A stretch of 64,000 nucleotides of DNA, taken from IMG/VR virus record IMGVR_UViG_2563366960_000002; one strand, given 5' to 3'. Of this stretch, positions 5,146-5,211 are shown in pieces. The DNA comes from a virus. Its lineage: Duplodnaviria > Heunggongvirae > Uroviricota > Caudoviricetes. Under the pieces are notes generated by a model that saw only the letters and a list, made by a program, of their open reading frames with translations, had not been told where the DNA came from and ran no database searches. The stretch's first letter is position 1, and the number at the start of each line of letters is the position of its first letter. The position numbers and the translations under genes are program-made.

Positions 5146-5162
5146 ATTGCTCTAATAAAAAA
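5146..5162 (+). promoter_or_regulatory. C1-type operator ATTGCTCTAATAAAAAA
   Basis: Direct read, 14/17 to consensus with core ATTGCTCTAATAA intact. Confidence 0.55.
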
Positions 5163-5184
5163 CGTGATGAGTGTACATCACGTT
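5161..5184. repeat. palindrome AACGTGATG-N6-CATCACGTT flanked by A-run and T-run
   Basis: Direct read; could be a bidirectional terminator or a regulator site between two inverted operators. Confidence 0.45.
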
Positions 5185-5194
5185 TTAAAAATAT

Positions 5195-5211
5195 GGAATT
5201 ATTAGAGCAAT
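5195..5211 (-). promoter_or_regulatory. C1-type operator (ATTGCTCTAATAATTCC on minus strand)
   Basis: Direct read; inverted relative to operator at 5146..5162. Confidence 0.55.

Follow-up and report, generated by a model that had tools for sequence, protein, structure and literature searches.

C1 is described as a monomer that binds to an asymmetric site, and C1 looping is known at the c1 region of bacteriophage P1. In other systems, such as lac O1/O3 and gal OE/OI, a repressor site is found on each side of the promoter. The bivalent operators of P1, Op72ab (Obanab) and Op99ab (Oc1ab), consist of two asymmetric 17-bp C1 sites, inverted tail-to-tail over one promoter, which overlap by 6 bp and have their centres 11 bp apart. 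Closest to the locus studied here are the two sites annotated as protein_bind features before pmgR in P1 (AF234172) and before its P7 equivalent, shtA, named OpmgRa and OpmgRb (formerly Op86a and Op86b) in P1 and Op(sht[a]) and Op(sht[b]) in P7. The P1 record states that OpmgRa controls the expression of pmgR and pmgS, and labels each of the sites as monovalent.

The DNA analyzed here is a 64,000-nucleotide stretch (hereafter, the window), in which the same pair is found with the same sequence over positions 5146-5211 and the same position and orientation between pmgQ (hdmD in P7) and pmgR. The window is a P1-like phage-plasmid. In a sequence search, its positions 4700-5700 were approximately 98% identical to P1, P7 and many P1-like phage-plasmids, the region being present in 689 plasmid records, and positions 5146-5211 were identical to P1, for which AF234172 coordinates are obtained by subtracting the window position from 87363.

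The pmgQ-pmgR gap and its C1 operators

According to the ORF list and the P1 and P7 annotation, the minus strand encodes all the genes around the module. The unit upstream, which runs in the same direction, has pmgQ (5213..5914) as its last gene, whose stop codon (TAG, 5215-5213) lies 26 nt before the hairpin described below. It is followed by an 81-bp intergenic gap holding both C1 operators and a palindrome, and then by pmgR (4913..5131, 72 aa), the first gene under the control of the module, and pmgS (4911-3649). On the minus strand, the start codon of pmgR is the ATG at 5131, preceded by a Shine-Dalgarno sequence (AAGGTG) at 5141-5136. The gene is reported to be essential, according to a deletion analysis that PMC10695390 cites. 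Further upstream, and in the same direction, the P1 annotation places the late promoter LPpmgL and the operators Op82 and Op83. In this regard, the −22 box of the P1 late promoter LPpmgL/LP26 (TAGTCATTT) and Op82 (ATTGCACTAATAATTTT) are kept 5' of pmgL in the window (8819-8870, minus strand), and the −10 sequence of LPpmgL is AAAATT in the window vs AATATT in P1.

The sequence-only reading had described two inverted C1-type operators, at 5146..5162 on the plus strand and at 5195..5211 on the minus strand, and these positions are exact: they are those of OpmgRb and OpmgRa, respectively, by both consensus match and P1/P7 annotation. The two sites are thus the already known P1 operator pair Op86a/Op86b before pmgR, and they are C1 sites by annotation. 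Op86a (ATTGCTCTAATAATTCC) begins 1 nt past the pmgQ stop codon, and the A-rich tail of Op86b (ATTGCTCTAATAAAAAA) is, on the minus strand, the T-run of the putative terminator discussed below. Each operator agreed with the consensus ATTGCTCTAATAAATTT at 14 of its 17 positions, the 13-nt core being perfect and the three mismatches all in the tail, and both sequences were within the range of the 14 annotated P1 operators. C1-consensus matches of this quality numbered nine in the window (0.46 expected), a count reached in none of 100 shuffles. The cores form a perfect 13-nt inverted repeat with 40 nt in between, and the complete sites are 32 bp apart, which gives a centre-to-centre distance of 49 bp (about 4.7 helical turns, a non-integer).

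The tail of Op86b deserves attention. Its AAAA, at operator positions 14-17, was found in none of the 13 other annotated P1 operators compared, where the consensus is ATTT, and such uniqueness among the 14 operators hints that a second role has influenced this sequence. In a comparison of 21 distinct versions of the module, the operator cores were invariant or had a single C/T change and were better kept than the neighbouring non-coding DNA; the 14 nt from Op86b to the start codon varied freely in relatives.

The palindrome as a strand-specific hairpin

As the sequence-only reading had noticed, a 24-bp palindrome, AACGTGATG-N6-CATCACGTT, is present between the operators at 5161-5184, flanked by an A-run and a T-run. 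Its arms extend to 11 bp (5159-5169 and 5176-5186), and it occurs once in the window, with 0.02 occurrences expected. On the minus strand, which is the sense strand of pmgR, the corresponding RNA would form a hairpin at 5159..5186 (AAAACGTGATG / TACACT / CATCACGTTTT), with arms at 5186-5176 and 5169-5159 and a loop at 5175-5170. Its folding energy was −13.4 kcal/mol (z of about −5), and the GC-containing core stem of 7 bp (5182-5163; CGUGAUG-UACACU-CAUCACG) had an energy of −8.5 kcal/mol. For P1 itself, the two strands give hairpins of equal stability. Read on the plus strand, the stem has AAAAAA before it and TTTT, then AAAAA, after it. The leader from Op86b to the start codon had no significant fold (z = 0.58), and an Rfam search at a permissive threshold gave no match at the palindrome. 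The palindrome (5159-5186) carries no annotation in the P1 and P7 GenBank records; it must be noted that the P1 record had no terminator features at all in the approximately 35 kb inspected.

Copies of the module were gathered from three sources: Cronobacter phage JK004, with 71% DNA identity; contigs encoding a PmgR 71-82% identical to that of the window, which belonged to divergent Salmonella, Cronobacter and metagenomic relatives; and viral contigs scanned with a pattern made up of the operator cores alone, a search hence blind to the hairpin. The set comprised 169 instances with 25 distinct sequences, 21 of which were aligned. The distance between cores was 40 nt in 163 of the 169 instances and 41 nt in the remaining six, the latter by homopolymer slippage; in the loci L050, L062 and L125, with 41-nt spacing, the homopolymer runs flanking the stem (window 5157-5162 and 5183-5187) differed by one base. 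Two matches with 46-nt spacing (L025 and L063) were unrelated AT-rich sequence and were rejected. An operator-pair pattern scan of genome contigs returned chance matches in AT-rich genomes, with no P1-like loci among the matches listed, and a PmgR-alignment search of viral contigs yielded only 100% identical copies. In one P1-like copy (L008, 1400-1500; GCA_045575315.1, JBIGSS010000005.1), Op86b has a 1-nt insertion (TTATTAGAAACAAT) and the pmgQ and pmgS frames are split into short ORFs, so that it looks like a decaying prophage-plasmid.

The stem changes in sequence among these relatives and keeps its pairing. Its core, CGTGATG/CATCACG in P1, reads CATGGTG/CACCATG or CGCCATG in relatives, with double switches between G:C and A:U at two core pairs and likewise at a third pair in one sequence. 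Over the 21 versions, 96.5% of the cells were paired on the sense (minus) strand, including 19 G-U cells distributed over 8 of the 11 pairs, vs 89.2% for the same helix on the opposite strand, with two wobble cells and 25 unpaired ones; these counts come from related sequences representing a handful of independent lineages. Part of this strand bias is confounded, given that the U side of the four basal A-U pairs of the stem lies inside the Op86b tail, where a change from U to C is possibly barred by the operator. In the seven core pairs, about five single changes were compatible with pairing on the sense strand and one with pairing on the antisense strand. In all of the deep lineages, the sense folding energy ranged from −11 to −16.5 kcal/mol, whereas the antisense hairpin acquired A-C mismatches in relatives and weakened to as little as −5.8 kcal/mol in three. 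In agreement with this, RNAalifold called the inner helix on the sense alignment alone (−25.2 vs −10.0 kcal/mol for the antisense). Taken together, these comparisons speak in favour of a hairpin that is under selection as RNA, in transcripts running in the direction of pmgR.

With respect to termination, the minus strand combines a stem followed by a U-rich tract (UUUUUUAUU), a co-directional gene upstream and pairing maintained on the sense strand, which are the features expected of an intrinsic terminator. The T-tract (TTTTTTATT, 5154..5162, minus strand) is directly 3' of the core stem, and is the predicted release region for pmgQ-derived transcripts. Its T-run was retained in all 21 versions, with a C at the first position in one. 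Nevertheless, since the tract is also part of Op86b, its conservation is not attributable to termination alone. The minus-strand hairpin had a d score of +10.7, ranking ninth among the 454 combinations of a hairpin and a T-run collected from the two strands of the window, only 15 of which scored above 0; the score is of the d'Aubenton-Carafa (1990) type, with ViennaRNA energies, and all d values given here are approximate. The clear terminators of the window, with d values of 29-49, are stronger. A separate terminator scan of the window did not call the hairpin, because the extension of the stem absorbs the T-run. On the plus strand the T-run is merely TTTT (estimated d of about −19), and it reads CTTC in relatives.

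From these traits, the palindrome is most likely a one-way intrinsic terminator of moderate strength that acts on the upstream pmgN-pmgQ unit. The sequence-only reading had proposed a bidirectional terminator nested in the operator pair. Its nested position and its terminator-like character are borne out, but not its bidirectionality, since the proper T-run, the G-U pairing and the RNAalifold helix are all confined to the minus strand. A leaky terminator at this point would insulate the C1-controlled pmgR promoter from the LPpmgL, Op82 and Op83 units while allowing some late readthrough.

Other terminator-like hairpins were observed in the window. At 3603-3627 on the minus strand, about 20 nt past the pmgS stop codon, there is a strong one (TGCTGGTGG-AGTGCGC-CCACCAGCA, then TTTTTTT; d = 31.8), which has no annotation in the P1 GenBank record and would close the pmgR-pmgS unit before pap. 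The hairpin at 36371-36392 (GGCTGCAAC-N4-GTTGCAGCC), unlike the 5159-5186 element, carries a T-run on each strand (d = 36 and 33) and is a candidate bidirectional terminator. A GC-rich hairpin at 3000-3022 on the plus strand (CATGCCGCG-TCT-TGCGGCATG; d = 34) has a T-run on that strand alone. This hairpin lies within the leader of pmgT, after Op88 (3055-3071) and before the start of that gene. No plus-strand gene reads into it, and in the minus-strand transcript it would correspond to a 5'-UTR hairpin with an A-run before it.

The pmgR promoter and alternative explanations

In the GenBank record, the predicted sigma-70 promoter PpmgR extends over 5182..5210 on the minus strand, with TTGCTC (5210-5205), inside Op86a, as −35 box and TAAAAC (5187-5182) as −10 box. 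This −10 sequence was not conserved, being TGAAGC, TGCGGC or TAAAGC in relatives. By contrast with the annotated box, the hairpin loop itself (TACACT, 5170..5175, minus strand) was, in a position-weight scan, the best positionally conserved sigma-70 −10 candidate, present in 9 of 9 divergent lineages. The loop had the form TAnnnT in all 169 instances (TACACT, TATCAT, TATTAT or TACGCT), its substitutions being confined to the three middle positions. A candidate weak −35 box is located at 5192..5198 on the minus strand, directly after the Op86a core and overlapping its tail, and may be read as TTCCAT (17-bp spacer) or TCCATA (16-bp spacer); in relatives TTTACT, TTTAAT or TTCAAT is found at this position. 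In P1 the loop promoter scored 6.8 vs 5.7 for the annotated one, with a loop −35 that is weak (2-3 of 6 positions) and a position-weight matrix that is approximate. The loop is thus probably the −10 box of the pmgR promoter, and transcription is predicted to start near 5163, inside the 3' arm. The sequence-only reading had considered the space before the start codon too short for a separate promoter, which holds for the 14 nt after Op86b but not for the module itself, where both the GenBank prediction and the better-conserved loop candidate are found.

An observation from the literature may be added. CRISPRi roadblocks in ppp and pmgQ were non-lethal despite pmgR being essential by deletion (PMC10695390), which fits a separate promoter for pmgR, located 3' of pmgQ; this polarity argument is weak because knockdown of pmgR itself did not score as essential in the same work (PMC10695390). 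Speculatively, if the transcript starts with GUUUUUU, the start region would resemble the promoters subject to UTP-sensitive reiterative transcription, e.g., codBA and upp.

A more distant relative is also informative. Upstream of pmgR in a P1-like plasmid of Citrobacter freundii, whose PmgR is 34% identical to that of the window, the arrangement is ACCATACTAATT-N20-AATTAGTATGGT, with TATCAT between the arms and without the inner stem. Given these flanking repeats and TATCAT in the absence of a stem, inverted operators flanking a promoter look ancestral, and the stem appears to have been added within the P1 lineage. In this plasmid (L137, NZ_CP056338.1), the 12-mer ACCATACTAATT occurred 15 times in 50 kb with up to two mismatches, against 3.4 expected, often just 5' of genes (for instance at 49239-49282, 45621-45632 and 47627-47638). 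The 12-mer probably serves as operator for a C1-like repressor of different specificity.

We consider rather probable a mechanism in which these elements act in combination. The C1 operator pair Op86a/Op86b would control a promoter of pmgR-pmgS located in the 81-bp gap after pmgQ. Transcripts coming from pmgQ would fold the stem-loop, followed by UUUUUUAUU, and would terminate there in one direction, closing the pmgN-pmgQ unit. The pmgR promoter would be interleaved with this terminator, its −35 box abutting the Op86a tail, its −10 box being the loop and its start lying in the 3' arm. Because of such a start, pmgR transcripts would lack the 5' arm and would not terminate at the hairpin. The promoter would be shut in the lysogen by C1 occupying both sites, namely Op86a, over the −35 box, and Op86b, which would span +2 to +18 and cover the T-tract; the protein on Op86b may in addition hold up polymerases arriving from upstream. 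On this view, the constancy of the 40-nt spacing would simply be a matter of promoter geometry. The possible repressor looping mentioned in the sequence-only reading would have to span a centre-to-centre distance of 49 bp, which does not correspond to an integer number of turns.

A more elaborate form of this mechanism, which we offer tentatively as a possibility, is that of a self-insulating promoter. The terminator hairpin would be built around the −10 box of the next promoter, and its U-tract would double as an operator tail. In the lysogen, C1 at Op86b, on the U-tract pause site, would tighten a leaky terminator (repressor-assisted termination). After induction, pmgR transcripts would start in the 3' arm and ignore the terminator, and late transcription initiated at LPpmgL would in part continue past it.

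Among the other explanations, the one that survives best, although we find it doubtful, is that the hairpin is a leader attenuator. The pmgR promoter would then lie upstream of the hairpin, e.g., with the −10-like AATAAT in Op86a, all pmgR leaders would carry the hairpin and the U-tract, and expression would need readthrough or phage antitermination. In two lineages, AATAAT with nnGAAT 17 bp upstream scored equal to the loop promoter (8.9), selection at the RNA level on the sense strand fits a leader element as well as an upstream terminator, and there is a suspicion, not backed by direct evidence, that P1 encodes antiterminators (PMC10695390). However, the −35 box of this promoter is placed within the pmgQ reading frame, and its P1 version is a poor one (AGGAAT, score 5.3). 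Moreover, an attenuator gives no reason for the invariant TAnnnT loop and leaves unexplained the TATCAT of the stem-less Citrobacter relative.

The sequence-only reading had also suggested that the palindrome might be the site of a second regulator, and we regard this as unlikely. A dimeric protein, of phage or host origin, would bind the DNA at the promoter −10 box and modulate pmgR besides C1. The palindrome is indeed perfect and centred on the promoter region, and half-sites co-evolving with a protein would also give symmetric, seemingly compensatory changes. Against this, 2-3 of the 7 core positions differed between lineages in which the C1 operators were unchanged, so the stem drifts while its structure is kept, and one-sided changes were tolerated where they result in G-U on one strand, which is the signature of an RNA and not of a half-site. 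The half-site was not enriched in the window (18 occurrences vs 15.2 expected), where the whole palindrome is unique, and the palindrome is absent from the Citrobacter relative. Nor is there any likeness to the −22 box of Lpa-dependent late promoters, a 9-bp sequence located 9-10 bp upstream of a −10 hexamer: the annotated boxes (AAGTTACTT, ATGTGACTT and TAGTCATTT) do not resemble AACGTGATG or CATCACGTT, and this candidate was discarded.

We likewise give little credence to the annotated model taken alone, i.e., PpmgR with TTGCTC and TAAAAC, Op86b as a downstream auxiliary operator and a palindrome without function. It is the one given in the GenBank annotation of P1, and TTGCTC is the −35 box of other C1-controlled promoters, e.g., P1ban. 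Yet TAAAAC is without the key final T, in addition to its replacement in relatives by the hexamers cited above, and a stem kept by double substitutions is unexpected for a functionless sequence. Finally, a bidirectional terminator, or a cruciform bringing the operators together for C1 looping, is very improbable: the hairpin of P1 folds equally on both strands between an A-run and a T-run, and extrusion of the 28-bp palindrome would, in purely arithmetical terms, leave the operator centres 21 instead of 49 bp apart (two helical turns), but the plus-strand T-run is poor, nothing reads into the hairpin on that strand, the neighbouring genes being all on the minus strand, and the A-C mismatches that weaken the antisense hairpin in relatives would weaken the cruciform likewise.

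Comparison with known systems

With respect to the P1 and P7 GenBank records, the DNA of the locus is the same and the core finding was already known; the records, however, omit the palindrome and place the −10 box at TAAAAC, which relatives do not support. What is added here is a modest reinterpretation, namely, a strand-specific hairpin reading of the unannotated palindrome and a better-supported −10 box for pmgR, made of parts of known kinds only. It refines the regulatory map of the classic phage P1 around pmgR. P1-like phage-plasmids are widespread in Enterobacteriaceae and, given that P1 is a common engineering chassis, knowledge of the boundaries of its transcription units helps to place insertions. 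A terminator, a promoter and operators interleaved in 66 bp would be an example of compact insulation, achieved without any new kind of element.

The pair Op86a/Op86b shares with the bivalent operators Op72ab and Op99ab the two asymmetric C1 sites inverted tail-to-tail over one promoter, but differs from them in that the sites do not overlap by about 6 bp; their centres are instead 49 bp apart, with the promoter and the hairpin in between. The pair is also like lac O1/O3 and gal OE/OI in having a site on each side of the promoter core, with strictly conserved 40-nt spacing between cores. It is unlike them in that C1 is described as a monomer acting on an asymmetric site and in that the spacing between centres corresponds to a non-integer number of helical turns. 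Lastly, the hairpin resembles the intrinsic terminators of E. coli and its phages in its stem-loop with a direct U-run, its location shortly past a co-directional stop codon and its covarying pairing, and departs from the usual ones in that its U-tract doubles as an operator tail and its loop holds a −10-like hexamer.
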